A stretch of 64,000 nt of DNA from Escherichia coli (GTDB taxonomy: Bacteria; Pseudomonadota; Gammaproteobacteria; Enterobacterales; Enterobacteriaceae), in assembly GCF_003334305.1 (NCBI RefSeq), contig NZ_QOWS01000009.1. One strand, 5' to 3'. How positions within the stretch are numbered: position 1 is the first letter of the stretch; each line of letters opens with the position of its first letter. The notes beneath the pieces are model-generated. The model ran no database searches, had not been told where the DNA came from, and worked only from the letters and a program-made list of their open reading frames with translations. A program made the translations under genes and the position numbers. Below are positions 38,202 to 61,078 of the stretch, one piece after another.

Positions 38202-38225
38202 CGCCGGATGAAAAGTCATCCGGCG
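38202..38225. terminator. Bidirectional hairpin between convergent pyrE and slmA
   Basis: CGCCGGATGA-aaag-TCATCCGGCG perfect palindrome. Confidence 0.6.
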
Positions 38226-38230
38226 TCATA

Positions 38231-38827
38231 TTACTGCAACTGCGCGGCAATTAGCGGCCAGCGGGCGTCAAAATCATCCGTCGGGCGGTATTTAAATTCG
38301 CTGCGGACAAAACGTGACAGCATACCTTCACAGAAGGCCAGGATCTGGCTTGCCAGCAGGGTTTCATCGGTGGTGTAACCTTCACCCTCACGCATTCTCT
38401 TTTCACGCAATACCTGGCGCAGCTGCGCTTCAATACGCTCGAACAGCTGGTTGATGCGCCCTTGCAGGCGATCCTGTTCAAACATTAGCGCATGACCAGT
38501 GAGGATGCGGGTCAGGCCAGGATTACGCTCACCAAAACCGAGAAGCAGCAACACAATCAGACGCAGGCGCGCTGTGGTGTCTTTCTCATCTTTCAGAATC
38601 AGGTTGATGCGAGTAATCAGGCTATCTTCGATAAACTCAATCAGGCTATCGAACATGCGGGTCTTACTGGGGAAGTGGCGATACAGTGCCGCTTCGGAAA
38701 CGCCGACAGAGGCGGCCAGTTTTGCCGTCGTGATACGTTGGCTTCCATCGCTGGATTCCAGCATCAGCGCCAGAGACTGAAGTATTTCCTCGCGACGGTT
38801 CCTTTTCGCAGTTTGTTTTTCTGCCAT
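38231..38827 (-). CDS. slmA: Nucleoid occlusion factor SlmA (TetR family)
   Basis: 198 aa from internal ATG ([24 protein letters not shown]...) of ORF 38231..38869. Confidence 0.93.
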
Positions 38828-48178: not shown

Positions 48179-49195
48179 ATGAGTGCCCACTATTTTAATC
48201 CACAAGAGATGATCAATAAGACAATCATCTTCGATGAAAGGCCAGCGGCGTCAGTGGCATCATCATTCCATGTTGCTTATGGCATTGATAAAAACTTTCT
48301 TTTTGGTTGTGGTGTTTCAATCACGTCAGTTTTGTTACATAACAACGACGTGAGTTTTGTTTTCCACGTTTTTATTGATGATATCCCTGAAGCCGATATC
48401 CAGCGTTTAGCCCAATTGGCGAAAAGCTATCGTACCTGTATCCAGATCCATCTAGTAAATTGTGAACGGCTTAAGGCATTACCGACGACCAAAAATTGGT
48501 CTATTGCCATGTATTTCCGTTTTGTAATTGCAGATTACTTTATTGATCAACAAGATAAGATCCTTTACCTGGATGCTGATATCGCCTGTCAGGGAAACTT
48601 AAAGCCGCTGATAACAATGGATCTTGCCAATAACGTTGCTGCTGTTGTTACTGAACGCGATGCTAACTGGTGGTCGTTACGGGGTCAAAGTCTGCAGTGT
48701 AATGAACTTGAAAAGGGTTACTTTAATTCAGGTGTCCTGTTAATTAATACACTAGCGTGGGCGCAGGAGTCCGTTTCTGCTAAAGCGATGTCGATGCTTG
48801 CTGATAAAGCCATCGTTTCCCGTTTAACCTATATGGATCAAGATATCCTTAATCTTATCCTGTTAGGGAAAGTTAAATTCATTGATGCTAAATACAATAC
48901 GCAATTTAGTTTAAATTATGAATTAAAAAAATCATTTGTTTGTCCAATTAATGATGAAACCGTATTAATTCATTATGTCGGCCCGACAAAACCCTGGCAT
49001 TACTGGGCCGGTTATCCAAGTGCGCAACCTTTTATCAAAGCCAAAGAAGCATCGCCCTGGAAAAATGAACCGTTAATGCGGCCAGTTAACTCAAACTATG
49101 CTCGTTATTGCGCCAAGCATAATTTTAAACAAAACAAACCAATTAACGGGATAATGAATTATATTTATTATTTTTATTTAAAGATAATAAAATGA
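48179..49195 (+). CDS. waaO: GT8 LPS alpha-1,3-glucosyltransferase (WaaO/WaaI type)
   Basis: 338 aa; DxD motif LYLDADIACQG and HYVGPTKPW motif; first gene after waaP; AT-rich. Confidence 0.8.
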   Translation: MSAHYFNPQEMINKTIIFDERPAASVASSFHVAYGIDKNFLFGCGVSITSVLLHNNDVSFVFHVFIDDIPEADIQRLAQLAKSYRTCIQIHLVNCERLKALPTTKNWSIAMYFRFVIADYFIDQQDKILYLDADIACQGNLKPLITMDLANNVAAVVTERDANWWSLRGQSLQCNELEKGYFNSGVLLINTLAWAQESVSAKAMSMLADKAIVSRLTYMDQDILNLILLGKVKFIDAKYNTQFSLNYELKKSFVCPINDETVLIHYVGPTKPWHYWAGYPSAQPFIKAKEASPWKNEPLMRPVNSNYARYCAKHNFKQNKPINGIMNYIYYFYLKIIK

Positions 49196-55371: not shown

Positions 55372-56418
55372 TCAGGCTTCCTCTTGTAACAATAGCGCGT
55401 TGAGTTCTTCCAGTACGCGCTGGGGAGTAATGTCGATCAAGCTCTGGTGATAACCCTCCGCAGCGTCACCTTTACGCACTTTGTGATAGCCGGTAATCAG
55501 GCGGATCACGCGCGCTTTATGGGATAGCGGCGGTGTGAAGTCCGGGCTACTCGGACCATACAGGGCAACCAGCGGACGATTGAGCGCCGCCGCAACGTGC
55601 ATCAGGCCAGAATCGTTAGTGACAATGGCTTTACAGGCTGCAATCAGGATAACCGCTTGATCAAGCTGTGTTTCCCCCGCCAGGTTCCGACACCATGCCT
55701 GCTGCTCGGTATTCAAAGCGGCAAGAATCTCATTGCCTGCTTCATGATCTTTCGCCGAGCCAAACAGAACCACCTGATAACCTTCATCAATCAGCTGCTT
55801 TGCCAGCTCCGCATAGTGGTAGTGTGGCCAGCGTTTTGCCGGACCAAACTCCGCACCCGGGCAAAAACCAATCATCGGACGTTCTGATGAAAGCGAAAAT
55901 TGATTACAGGTATATGATTTTTCACCTTCGCTCACCTGCAACTGCGGCCATAACAATGGCTGCGGCAGATCTTGTGCTGTGCGCATAATGCCTTTGTCAT
56001 AGGCCAGCGCGACATAGCGTTCCACCATTAGCGGCCAGGCTTCTTTATCGAGCACGCGTACATCGTTGAGTAAACCGTAGCGCATCTCGCCGCGCCAGCC
56101 GGTGCGATGAGGAATACCCGCGAAGAAAGGCACTAATGCGGATTTGAAGGAGTTGGGTAAGACGTAGGCGCGGTCGTAGCGCTTTTCACGCAGGCTATGA
56201 CCCAGTTTGCGGCGTTCGCCGATTTCCAGCGCTCCGTGACCGAGAGGCATAGGGATAGCTTCGTTAACTTCCGGCATCCGCGATAATAATGGACGGCACC
56301 ATGCCGGTGCCATCACATCGATTATCGCCTGGGGATAGCGCGCCTGGAGCGTGCGATAGAGACTTTGCGACATCATCATGTCGCCAACCCAAGACGGGCC
56401 GATCACCAGTATTTTCAT
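55372..56418 (-). CDS. waaF: LPS heptosyltransferase II WaaF
   Basis: 348 aa, GT9, MKILVIGPSWVGDMMMSQSLYRTL... Confidence 0.95.
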   Translation of the reverse strand: MKILVIGPSWVGDMMMSQSLYRTLQARYPQAIIDVMAPAWCRPLLSRMPEVNEAIPMPLGHGALEIGERRKLGHSLREKRYDRAYVLPNSFKSALVPFFAGIPHRTGWRGEMRYGLLNDVRVLDKEAWPLMVERYVALAYDKGIMRTAQDLPQPLLWPQLQVSEGEKSYTCNQFSLSSERPMIGFCPGAEFGPAKRWPHYHYAELAKQLIDEGYQVVLFGSAKDHEAGNEILAALNTEQQAWCRNLAGETQLDQAVILIAACKAIVTNDSGLMHVAAALNRPLVALYGPSSPDFTPPLSHKARVIRLITGYHKVRKGDAAEGYHQSLIDITPQRVLEELNALLLQEEA

Positions 56419-57573: not shown

Positions 57574-58770
57574 ATGCGTGGAGAATTTTATCAGCAGTTA
57601 ACCAACGATCTGGAAACCGCACGGGCGGAAGGGTTGTTTAAAGAAGAGCGCATTATTACGTCTGCGCAGCAAGCAGATATCACTGTGGCTGATGGAAGCC
57701 ACGTCATTAACTTTTGTGCCAACAACTATCTCGGGCTGGCGAATCATCCGGATCTGATTGCGGCAGCAAAGGCGGGAATGGATTCTCACGGTTTCGGCAT
57801 GGCTTCGGTGCGTTTTATTTGCGGCACTCAGGACAGCCATAAAGAGCTTGAACAAAAACTGGCGGCATTCCTGGGGATGGAAGATGCGATTCTCTACTCT
57901 TCCTGCTTTGATGCTAACGGTGGACTGTTTGAAACGCTGCTGGGTGCGGAAGACGCCATTATCTCCGACGCACTGAACCACGCGTCTATTATTGATGGTG
58001 TGCGTCTGTGCAAAGCTAAACGCTATCGCTATGCCAACAACGATATGCAGGAGCTGGAAGCACGTCTGAAAGAAGCGCGTGAAGCCGGTGCGCGTCATGT
58101 GCTGATTGCCACCGATGGTGTGTTCTCAATGGACGGCGTGATTGCCAACCTGAAAGGCGTTTGCGATCTGGCAGATAAATACGATGCCCTGGTGATGGTG
58201 GATGACTCCCACGCGGTCGGTTTTGTCGGTGAAAATGGTCGTGGTTCCCATGAATACTGCGATGTGATGGGCCGGGTCGATATTATCACCGGTACGCTTG
58301 GTAAAGCGCTGGGCGGGGCTTCTGGTGGTTATACCGCGGCGCGCAAAGAGGTGGTTGAGTGGCTGCGCCAGCGTTCTCGTCCGTACCTGTTCTCCAACTC
58401 GCTGGCACCGGCCATTGTTGCCGCGTCCATCAAAGTACTGGAGATGGTCGAAGCGGGCAGCGAACTGCGTGACCGTCTGTGGGCGAACGCGCGCCAGTTC
58501 CGTGAGCAAATGTCGGCGGCGGGCTTTACCCTGGCGGGAGCCGATCATGCCATTATTCCGGTCATGCTTGGCGATGCAGTAGTGGCGCAGAAATTTGCCC
58601 GTGAGCTGCAAAAAGAGGGCATTTACGTCACCGGTTTCTTCTATCCGGTCGTTCCGAAAGGTCAGGCGCGTATTCGTACCCAGATGTCTGCGGCGCATAC
58701 CCCTGAGCAAATTACGCGTGCAGTAGAAGCATTCACGCGTATTGGTAAACAACTGGGCGTTATCGCCTGA
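57574..58770 (+). CDS. kbl: 2-amino-3-ketobutyrate CoA ligase
   Basis: 398 aa, PLP-dependent. Confidence 0.97.
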
Positions 58771-58779
58771 GGATGTGAG

Positions 58780-59805
58780 ATGAAAGCGTTATCCAAACTG
58801 AAAGCGGAAGAGGGCATCTGGATGACCGACGTTCCTGTACCGGAACTCGGGCATAACGATCTGCTGATTAAAATCCGTAAAACAGCCATCTGCGGGACTG
58901 ACGTTCACATCTATAACTGGGATGAGTGGTCGCAAAAAACCATCCCGGTGCCGATGGTCGTAGGCCATGAATATGTCGGTGAAGTGGTAGGTATTGGTCA
59001 GGAAGTGAAAGGCTTCAAAATCGGCGATCGCGTTTCTGGCGAAGGCCATATCACCTGCGGTCACTGTCGCAACTGTCGTGGCGGTCGTACCCATCTGTGC
59101 CGCAACACCATTGGTGTCGGTGTTAACCGTCCGGGCTGCTTCGCCGAATATCTGGTGATTCCGGCGTTCAACGCTTTCAAAATCCCCGACAATATCTCCG
59201 ACGACCTGGCTTCCATTTTTGATCCCTTCGGTAACGCCGTGCATACCGCGCTGTCGTTCGATCTGGTGGGCGAAGATGTGCTGGTTTCTGGTGCAGGTCC
59301 GATAGGTATTATGGCTGCGGCGGTGGCGAAACACGTTGGTGCACGCAATGTGGTGATCACCGATGTTAACGAATACCGCCTTGAGCTGGCGCGCAAAATG
59401 GGTATCACCCGTGCGGTCAACGTCGCTAAAGAAAACCTTAATGATGTGATGGCAGAACTGGGCATGACCGAAGGCTTTGATGTCGGTCTGGAAATGTCCG
59501 GTGCGCCGCCAGCGTTTCGTACCATGCTCGACACCATGAACCACGGCGGTCGCATTGCGATGCTGGGTATTCCACCGTCCGATATGTCTATCGACTGGAC
59601 CAAAGTAATCTTTAAAGGCTTGTTCATTAAAGGTATTTACGGTCGTGAGATGTTTGAAACCTGGTACAAGATGGCGGCGCTGATTCAGTCAGGTCTGGAT
59701 CTCTCGCCGATCATTACCCATCGTTTCTCTATCGATGATTTCCAGAAGGGCTTTGACGCTATGCGTTCGGGCCAGTCCGGGAAAGTAATTCTGAGTTGGG
59801 ATTAA
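58780..59805 (+). CDS. tdh: L-threonine 3-dehydrogenase
   Basis: 341 aa, zinc-dependent MDR ([15 protein letters not shown]). Confidence 0.97.
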
Positions 59806-59812
59806 CACGAAC

Positions 59813-59838
59813 AAGGGCTGGTATTCCAGCCCTTTTGC
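59813..59838 (+). terminator. Rho-independent terminator of kbl-tdh
   Basis: AAGGGCTGG-tattc-CAGCCCTT followed by TTG. Confidence 0.65.
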
Positions 59839-60043
59839 CTGAGGATAATCCGTTAAATATGTAAAATCCTGTCAGTGTAATAAAGATATCGTAATTGCGC
59901 TGATCTCTTATATAGCTGCTCTCATTATCTCTCTACCCTGAAGTGACTCTCTCACCTGTAAAAATAATATCTCACAGGCTTAATAGTTTCTTAATACAAA
60001 GCCTGTAAAACGTCAGGATAACTTCAGAGGTCGTCGGTAATTT

Positions 60044-61078
60044 ATGATGAACAGCACCAATAAACTTAGTGTTATTATTCCGTTATATAATGCGGGCGAT
60101 GATTTCCGCACTTGTATGGAATCTTTAATTACGCAAACCTGGACTGCTCTGGAAATCATTATTATTAACGATGGTTCAACGGATAATTCTGTTGAAATAG
60201 CAAAGCATTACGCAGAAAACTATCCGCACGTTCGTTTGTTGCATCAGGCGAATGCTGGCGCATCGGTAGCGCGTAATCGTGGGATCGAGGTGGCGACGGG
60301 CAAATATGTCGCTTTTGTCGATGCTGACGATGAGGTCTATCCCACCATGTACGAAACGCTGATGACCATGGCGTTAGAGGATGACCTCGACGTGGCGCAG
60401 TGCAACGCTGACTGGTGTTTTCGTGAAACGGGAGAAACCTGGCAATCCATCCCCAGCGATCGCCTTCGCTCAACCGGCGTATTAACCGGCCCGGACTGGC
60501 TGCGGATGGGGCTTTCTTCGCGCCGTTGGACTCACGTTGTCTGGATGGGGGTTTATCGCCGTGATGTTATTGTTAAAAATAACATTAAATTTATTGCCGG
60601 ATTACATCATCAGGATATTGTCTGGACAACAGAATTCATGTTTAACGCGCTGCGTGCGCGATATACCGAGCAATCATTATATAAATATTATCTGCATAAT
60701 ACGTCAGTGAGTCGGTTGCATAGACAAGGGAATAAAAACCTTAATTATCAACGTCACTATATTAAGATTACCCGCCTGCTGGAGAAATTAAATCGAAATT
60801 ATGCCGACAAAATTACGATTTATCCGGAATTTCATCAGCAAATAACTTACGAAGCATTGCGTGTTTGCCATGCGGTGCGCAAAGAGCCGGATATTCTTAC
60901 CCGCCAACGGATGATTGCCGAGATATTTACTTCCGGTATGTATAAGCGCCTGATTACCAATGTGCGCAGCGTGAAGGTCGGTTACCAGGCGTTACTGTGG
61001 TCTTTCCGCTTATGGCAATGGCGCGACAAAACGCGGTCGCACCATCGCATTACGCGTAGCGCCTTTAATTTGCGCTAG
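60044..61078 (+). CDS. waaH: GT2 glycosyltransferase WaaH (YibD)
   Basis: 344 aa, LSVIIPLYNAGDDF..IIIINDGSTDNS GT2 signature. Confidence 0.9.
   Translation: MMNSTNKLSVIIPLYNAGDDFRTCMESLITQTWTALEIIIINDGSTDNSVEIAKHYAENYPHVRLLHQANAGASVARNRGIEVATGKYVAFVDADDEVYPTMYETLMTMALEDDLDVAQCNADWCFRETGETWQSIPSDRLRSTGVLTGPDWLRMGLSSRRWTHVVWMGVYRRDVIVKNNIKFIAGLHHQDIVWTTEFMFNALRARYTEQSLYKYYLHNTSVSRLHRQGNKNLNYQRHYIKITRLLEKLNRNYADKITIYPEFHQQITYEALRVCHAVRKEPDILTRQRMIAEIFTSGMYKRLITNVRSVKVGYQALLWSFRLWQWRDKTRSHHRITRSAFNLR

Follow-up and report, generated by a model that had tools for sequence, protein, structure and literature searches.

The 65-bp stretch between positions 59955 and 60019 is probably the core of the known, activator-dependent promoter of waaH (yibD). 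The two copies of the 9-mer CCTGTAAAA within it (59955-63 and 60002-10, 47 bp from start to start) are the only occurrences in the window, that is, the whole 64-kb stretch of Escherichia coli DNA that was analyzed, and on balance they appear to be different pieces of this promoter with different jobs, not equivalent sites. The explanation that we favor, with somewhat better than even confidence, combines a BasR box and its −10 element with an upstream array of weak PhoB half-sites. BasR~P and, more weakly, QseB~P would bind the box at 59979-59995, which stands in place of a −35 element, and, when Fe3+ or Zn2+ is sensed, the bound activator would recruit RNA polymerase. The downstream CCTGTAAAA copy would provide the end of the spacer and the −10, with its CAGG arm falling between the −10 and a predicted start near 60018, and the upstream copy would supply TGTAAA, the good half-site of a weak Pho-box-like 18-mer at 59957-59974. 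At the high levels reached in phosphate starvation, PhoB~P most likely binds a low-affinity array of four half-sites spanning 59957-59996, and would activate either from the shared −10, in which case the PmrA box would be its proximal Pho box, or from the hexamer TAGTTT at 59984-89. In this scheme we infer the start site, the bases contacted by PhoB, and the sharing of the box. Its elements are as follows.

59957 to 59974, plus strand: weak Pho-box-like 18-mer TGTAAAAATAATATCTCA, located with a position weight matrix, which holds most of the first CCTGTAAAA copy.
59979 to 59995, plus strand: perfect PmrA/BasR box CTTAAT-AGTTT-CTTAAT (CTTAATAGTTTCTTAAT), the sole match without mismatches in the window.
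59984 to 59989, plus strand: TAGTTT, a candidate −10 that could serve a separate, PhoB-specific start; it follows the distal Pho-like box by 10 bp and lies within the spacer of the PmrA box.
60006 to 60011, plus strand: putative −10 hexamer TAAAAC of the PmrA/BasR-dependent promoter, exactly 10 bp after the box and part of a conserved TAnAAn.
60017 to 60019, plus strand: putative start of transcription from the BasR-dependent promoter, placed 6-8 nt downstream of the −10 (MG1655 3,790,106-3,790,108).

The setting is the E. coli kbl-tdh-waaH locus, in which kbl occupies 57574-58770, tdh 58780-59805, and waaH/yibD 60044-61078. Homologues of waaH carry the GT2 domains PF00535 and PF10111. The regulatory region is delimited by the following features.

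59803 to 59805: stop codon of tdh.
59813 to 59834, plus strand: intrinsic terminator hairpin of tdh (a terminator-like site and inverted repeat I2), marking the upstream edge of the regulatory region of waaH.
60044 to 61078, plus strand: coding sequence of waaH (yibD), UDP-glucuronate:LPS(HepIII) glycosyltransferase (open reading frame and RefSeq annotation).

A 301-bp intergenic query found matches in 5404 of 5426 complete E. coli genomes, all of them with tdh and waaH annotated. Over 59900-60049, K-12 MG1655 is the same as the window base for base, so the K-12 literature can be transferred base for base (window position p equals MG1655 3,790,081 + (60044 − p)). Published work already describes this waaH/yibD promoter, including the PmrA box, the dependence on PhoB, and the application as a phosphate-inducible part.

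Regulation by PmrA and QseB has been described in two organisms. In uropathogenic E. coli, a 105-bp yibD promoter fragment is shifted by PmrA~P and, more weakly, by QseB~P in electrophoretic mobility shift assays (EMSA), and the Fe3+ surge of yibD is abolished in a pmrA mutant and fivefold lower in a qseB mutant. In Salmonella, yibD was one of the sources of the PmrA motif CTTAA-N5-CTTAA, and in a preAB mutant it is induced approximately 69-fold by overexpressed PreA, the Salmonella QseB. In strain CFT073, the NsrR ChIP-seq signal peaks 191 bp before the waaH ATG, and the waaH architecture in EcoCyc comprises PhoB sites, BasR, and NsrR. A preliminary description of this DNA had proposed that the region binds regulators, and the published in vitro binding of PmrA, QseB, and PhoB bears this out. 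The same description overlooked the strongest element present, the perfect PmrA/BasR box that separates the two copies, together with the published binding of PmrA, QseB, and NsrR.

By every sequence feature that can be tested, the region is a PmrA/BasR promoter: it has the YTTAAK-N5-YTTAAK repeat, the box stands at the expected position relative to the −10, and the arrangement is conserved among orthologues. A box with no more than one mismatch precedes the start codon by 47-54 bp at 24 orthologous loci, which represent at least 10 genera (Escherichia, Citrobacter, Salmonella, Cedecea, Enterobacter, Pseudescherichia, Superficieibacter, Kosakonia, Pseudocitrobacter, and strain LSJC7 bear it), and it is absent upstream of the waaH orthologues of Pantoea, Erwinia, Rahnella, Serratia, and more distant genera. 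In a conservation profile of 17 of the orthologous promoters anchored on the box, the box itself carries 1.52 bits per column, the 10-bp spacer 0.44, and TAnAAn 1.47; the 30 bp upstream of the box, where the first motif lies, carry 0.36. The T of TAnAAn is found in 16 of the 17 promoters and each of its three As in all 17. The last position of the hexamer is T in none of the 17, and TAAAAC likewise is without the usual final T. This fixed 10-bp geometry, the conservation, and the same layout in K-12 BasR promoters are the reasons for assigning 60006-60011, with moderate confidence, as the −10 of the BasR/QseB-dependent waaH promoter. The second CCTGTAAAA copy is accordingly composed of the last four spacer bases (CCTG) and the TAAAA of the hexamer.

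The K-12 promoters of arnB (CTTAAGGTTAAGTTAAT, 10 bp, TAAAAT), eptA (CTTAAGGTTGGCTTAAT, 10 bp, GAGCAT), and pmrR (CTTAAGGTTCACTTAAT, 10 bp, CATACT) have the same geometry as waaH with its TAAAAC, and all four have in common a YTTAAK-N5-YTTAAK direct repeat that replaces the −35. In waaH, unlike the other three, the box is a perfect repeat of CTTAAT and its spacer is T-rich. A sigma-70 scan of the region returned no −35/−10 pair and no constitutive or distal promoter; the absence of such a pair is expected for an activator-dependent promoter. TAACTT (60020-25) was considered as a −10 and rejected, being conserved in close relatives only and placing the start approximately 12 nt from the ATG; the TAnAA at a fixed distance accounts better for the data. 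Both repeats had been placed in the waaH leader, a placement that does not hold, as copy 1 precedes every plausible start site and copy 2 overlaps the −10. The box at 59979-59995 is likely the QseB site too.

The phosphate-starvation response of waaH, which the preliminary description had mentioned, is confirmed by transcriptome measurements in several strains. Microarrays of EDL933 gave 81-fold higher waaH/yibD expression in low than in high phosphate and 15-fold higher expression in the wild type than in a phoB mutant, and yibD was up 46-fold in a microarray of an avian pathogenic E. coli (APEC) pst mutant. It was also up in a pstCA mutant of C. rodentium. In MG1655, RNA-seq counted approximately 12,700 waaH reads, versus approximately 3,000 in a phoB mutant (log2 2.1). 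As to how PhoB acts, the literature is in conflict at waaH, with PhoB binding in vitro on one side, where the EDL933 waaH promoter is shifted by PhoB in EMSA, and the lack of a PhoB ChIP-seq peak on the other. Neither ChIP-seq nor earlier ChIP-chip of PhoB gave a signal upstream of waaH, and the ChIP-seq authors conclude that regulation is indirect. The same authors concede that any PhoB site at waaH would be of low affinity, and the tagged PhoB of that study was impaired in activity approximately 8-fold. As a separate observation, the high waaH expression in the phoB mutant and the high eptA counts suggest that BasR is active in the MOPS medium used for ChIP.

Phosphate control has also been exploited for engineering. 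The part yibDp, a 137-bp fragment (about 59888-60025), is a tight and very strong phosphate-depletion promoter without the full conserved block that lies farther upstream, and it is widely used as a phosphate-inducible part for two-stage autoinduction. Machine-reading errors in the supplement sequence aside, yibDp equals window positions 59888-60025, so that the PmrA box and the two CCTGTAAAA copies are part of it; the engineering replaced 60026-60043 by a synthetic ribosome-binding site and removed the distal block with the NsrR region.

A PhoB position weight matrix, built from 59 motif-bearing ChIP-seq sites, separates the two repeats. The preliminary description had proposed such a scan, and its outcome is divided: the 18-mer of copy 1 (59957-74) scores 7.1-7.4 bits, a weak match below about 97% of the 59 real ChIP sites, and copy 2 reaches at most 2.1 bits, on which ground the second motif was rejected as a Pho box. 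Within 59957-74, the half-site TGTAAA is good and the half-site TATCTC is defective, with a T at a position occupied by A in 59 of 59 ChIP sites. The resemblance of CTGTAAA to a Pho half-site therefore survives for the upstream copy, as the better half of a weak Pho-box-like 18-mer, and fails for the downstream one. The earlier remark that the match to the full Pho box is imperfect is in line with the lack of any PhoB peak in ChIP-seq. Judged by its bases, the first motif is a marginal Pho-box match with the correct geometry.

It is this geometry that links the first motif to the PmrA box. The 18-mer at 59979-96 that contains the box scores 6.8 bits on the PhoB matrix, has A at both invariant positions, and begins exactly 22 bp, or two half-site periods, downstream of 59957; the four half-sites at 59957, 59968, 59979, and 59990 fall into a single 11-bp register. 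Among about 128,000 positions, this is the sole 22-bp-phased pair in which both boxes score at least 6.5 bits, and an in-phase score of at least 7.1 bits arose in 15 of 20,000 local shuffles. Taken singly, both 18-mers fall below about 97% of the real ChIP sites, and approximately 60 window positions outscore them without being ChIP peaks. The boxes of arnB, eptA, and pmrR score only −1.6 to 2.0 bits on the PhoB matrix, versus 6.8 for that of waaH, and nothing Pho-like lies upstream of them; the in-phase upstream 18-mer is a feature of waaH only. It is conserved in Escherichia and near relatives alone, and in Salmonella it is out of phase by 1 bp.

The spacing from box to −10, read as 10 bp from the sequences of phoA, phoB, and pstS, is found twice in the waaH promoter, once as 59957-73, 10 bp, and TAGTTT, and once as the PmrA-box 18-mer, 10 bp, and TAAAAC. 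The waaH promoter is like pstS, phoA, and phoB in its 11-bp half-site period, a box 10 bp before the −10, the lack of a −35, and its PhoB dependence, and its layout of four half-sites resembles the tandem Pho boxes of pstS. It is unlike Pho-box promoters in that an invariant position is violated in one half-site, no PhoB ChIP-seq peak is present, and the scores are low (7.1 and 6.8 bits, compared to 23.4 and 15.6 for pstS). In addition, what would be its proximal "box" is a genuine binding site for a different response regulator, unlike those of pstS, phoA, and phoB.

With these features in hand, 59957-59974 is the probable distal PhoB site, and direct, low-affinity PhoB binding to 59957-59996 is the most economical reading. 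The PmrA/BasR box may double as the promoter-proximal Pho box, and the notion of one box for two or three response regulators is put forward tentatively, as a possibility well short of an even chance. Under such sharing PhoB~P, aided by the upstream TGTAAA, would compete or alternate with BasR~P or QseB~P and use the same −10. Low affinity combined with BasR occupancy in an iron-containing minimal medium would explain the missing PhoB ChIP-seq signal; MOPS medium contains iron, and that BasR occupancy of an overlapping site contributed to the missing signal is speculation on our part. More generally, low-affinity Pho half-sites that overlap a site of another OmpR-family regulator would reconcile binding in vitro with an absent ChIP peak. 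If the box is indeed shared, waaH would represent a compact integration of phosphate, iron/zinc, and QseBC signals at one activator site, and such single-site integration would govern a modification of the LPS core.

The alternative that survives best, though we regard it as unlikely, grants PhoB a promoter of its own. The 18-mer at 59956/7-59973 would be a stand-alone Pho box with TAGTTT as its −10, transcription would begin near 59996-97 (MG1655 3,790,128-129), BasR/QseB alone would use the PmrA box and TAAAAC, and the second CCTGTAAAA copy would lie in the 5′ UTR in phosphate-starved cells. Such an arrangement obeys the 10-bp box-to-hexamer rule exactly, as in phoA, phoB, and pstS, and TAGTTT has the T-A...T pattern of the PhoB-dependent −10s TATAGT, CATAAT, and TATTTT, whereas TAAAAC is without a final T. 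Against this, the promoter-proximal half-site TATCTC violates the invariant A, and a single 7-bit box would be weaker than about 97% of bound sites. The hexamer itself is poorly kept: its A is replaced in the divergent Escherichia genome L001 (TGGTTT), in C. sedlakii (TTGTTT), and in C. rodentium (TCGTTT), yet yibD is induced in the C. rodentium pst mutant.

Indirect control, for which we see a low probability, holds that PhoB does not bind at waaH in vivo, that a PhoB-dependent factor or altered BasR/QseB activity drives waaH in low phosphate, and that CTGTAAA is a chance match or an AT-rich, UP-like tract. The missing ChIP-seq and ChIP-chip signals, the weak matrix scores, the poor conservation of the first-motif region, and the still high expression of about 3,000 reads in the phoB mutant are all consistent with it. 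The route through BasR is closed by eptA, a BasR target that was not PhoB dependent in the same RNA-seq, so that the PhoB effect on waaH is not routed through BasR activation, and this variant was rejected. Four further points weigh against indirect control in general: the 137-bp fragment is enough for tight, strong phosphate induction; an in-phase Pho-like array of this kind is unlikely to arise by chance and is lacking in other BasR promoters; the ChIP tag cut PhoB activity about 8-fold; and, at least as the second report is cited, two groups have reported PhoB binding in vitro. That second report, by Yoshida in 2011, is reportedly a study of the PhoB-binding site of yibD.

The preliminary description had taken the repeats as two related CCTG-AT-rich-CAGG dyads, which would make them equivalent operators of one dimeric regulator, PhoB or another; we consider this very improbable. 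Its strings, CACCTGTAAAAATAATATCTCACAGG (59953-59978) and GCCTGTAAAACGTCAGG (60001-60017), both between the tdh terminator and waaH, are exact in letters and coordinates, as is the 47-bp distance between the CCTGTAAAA copies, and the same 9-mer does occur twice with a short inverted arm after each. The repeat is nonetheless within chance (p about 0.08). Dinucleotide shuffling of this intergenic DNA produced an exact direct repeat of at least 9 bases within 100 bp in 158 of 2000 trials (7.9%), real 204-bp segments contained one in 124 of 1276 cases (~10%), and shuffling the whole window gave at least two copies of the 9-mer CCTGTAAAA itself in 6 of 100 trials. The arms of the dyads, 4-5 bp each, are neither conserved nor covarying in relatives, the two features by which a palindromic operator would be recognized. 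Across nine Escherichia, Citrobacter, and Salmonella sequences the dyad pairing holds in 57% and 76% of cells, the same as in shuffles (181/500), and by alignment the arms are gone in the divergent Escherichia genome, which has CACTCGTAAAA...CATAAG and ATCTGTACAACGTTAGAG at the dyad positions, as well as in C. sedlakii and Salmonella.

Variation within E. coli points the same way. The 81 bp of 59945-60025 are essentially biallelic, with 4115 genomes identical to the window and 1291 (of about 5411) carrying T59957G (CCGGTAAAA), an allele present in 24% of E. coli genomes and the one change in a stretch where every other base is fixed. This common SNP breaks both the identity of the 9-mers and the first dyad, and lowers the score of the Pho-like 18-mer to 5.4 bits. 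Moreover, PhoB binds direct repeats, not inverted ones, according to the ChIP-seq motif, and copy 2, with at most 2.1 bits as a Pho box, has its conserved bases, TAAAA, explained as the −10 hexamer. The waaH case illustrates that identical 9-mers may be functionally unrelated, one being a −10 and the other an activator half-site.

Least credible of all is an RNA attenuator, in which a distal promoter would give waaH a long leader whose CCTGT/ACAGG/CCTGT/CAGG segments form alternative hairpins: segment pairings 1:2, 2:3, and 3:4 are possible, and a perfect 8-bp inverted repeat, ACAGGCTT/AAGCCTGT (59974-81 and 59999-60006), flanks the PmrA box and in C. sedlakii has C:G in place of a G:C pair, but the folding energy is ordinary relative to shuffles (z = −0.68), the covariation of the 8-bp repeat is marginal (18-28 of 500 shuffles, within the stated false-positive range of the tool), no Rfam family matches at E ≤ 1, no distal sigma-70 promoter was found, and the truncated promoter works without distal sequence, so that stability, covariation, and known family alike give no sign of a structured leader.

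Farther upstream, just downstream of the NsrR ChIP summit, lies one more conserved element.

59855 to 59915, plus strand: distal conserved block TGTAAA-N4-TGTCAG-TGTAAT-AAAGATAT-CGTAATTGCGC...TCTTATATAG, with Pho-like half-sites at non-canonical spacing.

The block is kept in Escherichia, Citrobacter, Salmonella, Kosakonia, Siccibacter, and Pseudocitrobacter and is the most polymorphic stretch of the region within E. coli, where the distal 81 bp vary far more than 59945-60025. It contains the top PhoB matrix match of the intergenic region, 59876-93, at 9.4 bits. It was nevertheless rejected as a canonical Pho box, given that its half-sites are spaced by 10, 6, and 14 bp, its scores vary from 11.8 bits in C. 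rodentium to at most 5.2 in S. enterica, no ChIP peak covers it, and it is dispensable for phosphate induction. An NsrR half-site within the block was also rejected, the match being poor and not conserved when judged by eye. The 10-bp phased GTAAA/GTCAT repeats might conceivably be read as CpxR or OmpR sites, given the consensus sequences of these regulators.

The hexamer assigned as the -10 element of the PmrA/BasR-dependent waaH promoter (TAAAAC, 60006-60011) lies 10 bp 3′ of the perfect PmrA box (59979-59995) and, across the window and 16 orthologous loci (e.g., L003, L005, L016, and L081), follows a conserved TAnAA pattern completed by A, C, or G. A final T, found in 0 of these 17 promoters, is a feature whose absence is unusual for a sigma-70 -10 element; in contrast, the hexamers of the K-12 BasR promoters arnB, eptA, and pmrR all end in T. 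Two sets of repeats lie near the box and the first motif, the repeated 9-mer copy at 59955:

59974-59981 and 59999-60006: perfect 8-bp inverted repeat, ACAGGCTT/AAGCCTGT, flanking the PmrA box on both sides
59929-59940 and 59947-59958: direct repeat, CTCTCTACCCTG/CTCTCTCACCTG, with 18-bp spacing, just 5′ of the first motif

C. sedlakii preserves the inverted repeat by exchanging a G:C pair for C:G, and E. fergusonii shows one G:C to A:T swap; covariation of the repeat is marginal (18-28/500 shuffles). The first copy of the direct repeat overlaps a patch, C.CT.TA...CTG, that is common to Escherichia, Citrobacter, and Salmonella.

Within E. coli, the 81-bp core promoter harbors a sole common polymorphism, T59957G (CCTGTAAAA to CCGGTAAAA), with G present in 1291 genomes versus the window allele in 4115. 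The substitution reduces the score of the Pho-like 18-mer (59957-59974) from 7.1 to 5.4 bits against a PhoB matrix built from 59 ChIP-seq sites, so Pi induction of waaH might vary between lineages. The waaH promoter sites fall far below the window's four best matches to this matrix, which reach 12-12.8 bits:

55902-55919, minus strand: PhoB-matrix match
38224-38241, plus strand: PhoB-matrix match
60560-60577, minus strand: PhoB-matrix match
48322-48339, minus strand: PhoB-matrix match

Since the matching stretch of MG1655 (about 3.786-3.850 Mb, collinearity assumed) has no listed PhoB ChIP-seq peak, matrix score alone is a poor predictor of PhoB occupancy.

Farther upstream, a conserved element lies a short way past the tdh terminator:

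59855-59915: distal conserved block of ~60 bp, kept in at least six genera

Its consensus across these genera is TGTAAA-N4-TGTCAnTGTCATAAAT-nTTnCGTAATTnCGC...TCTTATTTT, and its spacing to the PmrA box differs between genomes. Pho-like half-sites within it are spaced non-canonically, at 10, 6, and 14 bp; the 10-bp phased GTAAA/GTCAT repeats could hint at CpxR or OmpR as candidates. No part of the tdh-waaH intergenic region varies more within E. coli than this block. It lies a short distance downstream of a published NsrR ChIP-seq summit at about 59853, and its removal raises expression in minimal medium. In E. fergusonii (L083), whose waaH has a radical-SAM HemN-like gene instead of tdh as its upstream neighbor, the block still accompanies waaH.

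GGTAAT directly 5′ of the waaH ATG (60036-60043) is common to Escherichia, Citrobacter, and Salmonella. Salmonella lacks the GAGG (60027-60030) that E. coli carries 13 nt from the ATG. These features suggest that the weak GG at 60036-60037 may be the effective ribosome-binding site.

In Citrobacter sp. On2M and FP75, C. youngae ATCC 29220, C. werkmanii, and Kluyvera (L010-L015), tdh is immediately followed by a WaaH-like gene of greater divergence (63-67% identity). The PmrA box is absent upstream of this gene (upstream of position 2501 in these loci), and the conserved sequence that precedes it, CGCTTAATATGCTAAAAAnTGCCG...TACTGTCTGGCAGGAT, is particular to it; together these features suggest a paralogue or replaced allele under different regulation. 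At about 490 bp, the tdh-waaH spacer of S. enterica (L081, 1008-1500) is double the E. coli length; it contains additional sequence resembling hairpins and a called ORF of 46 aa.
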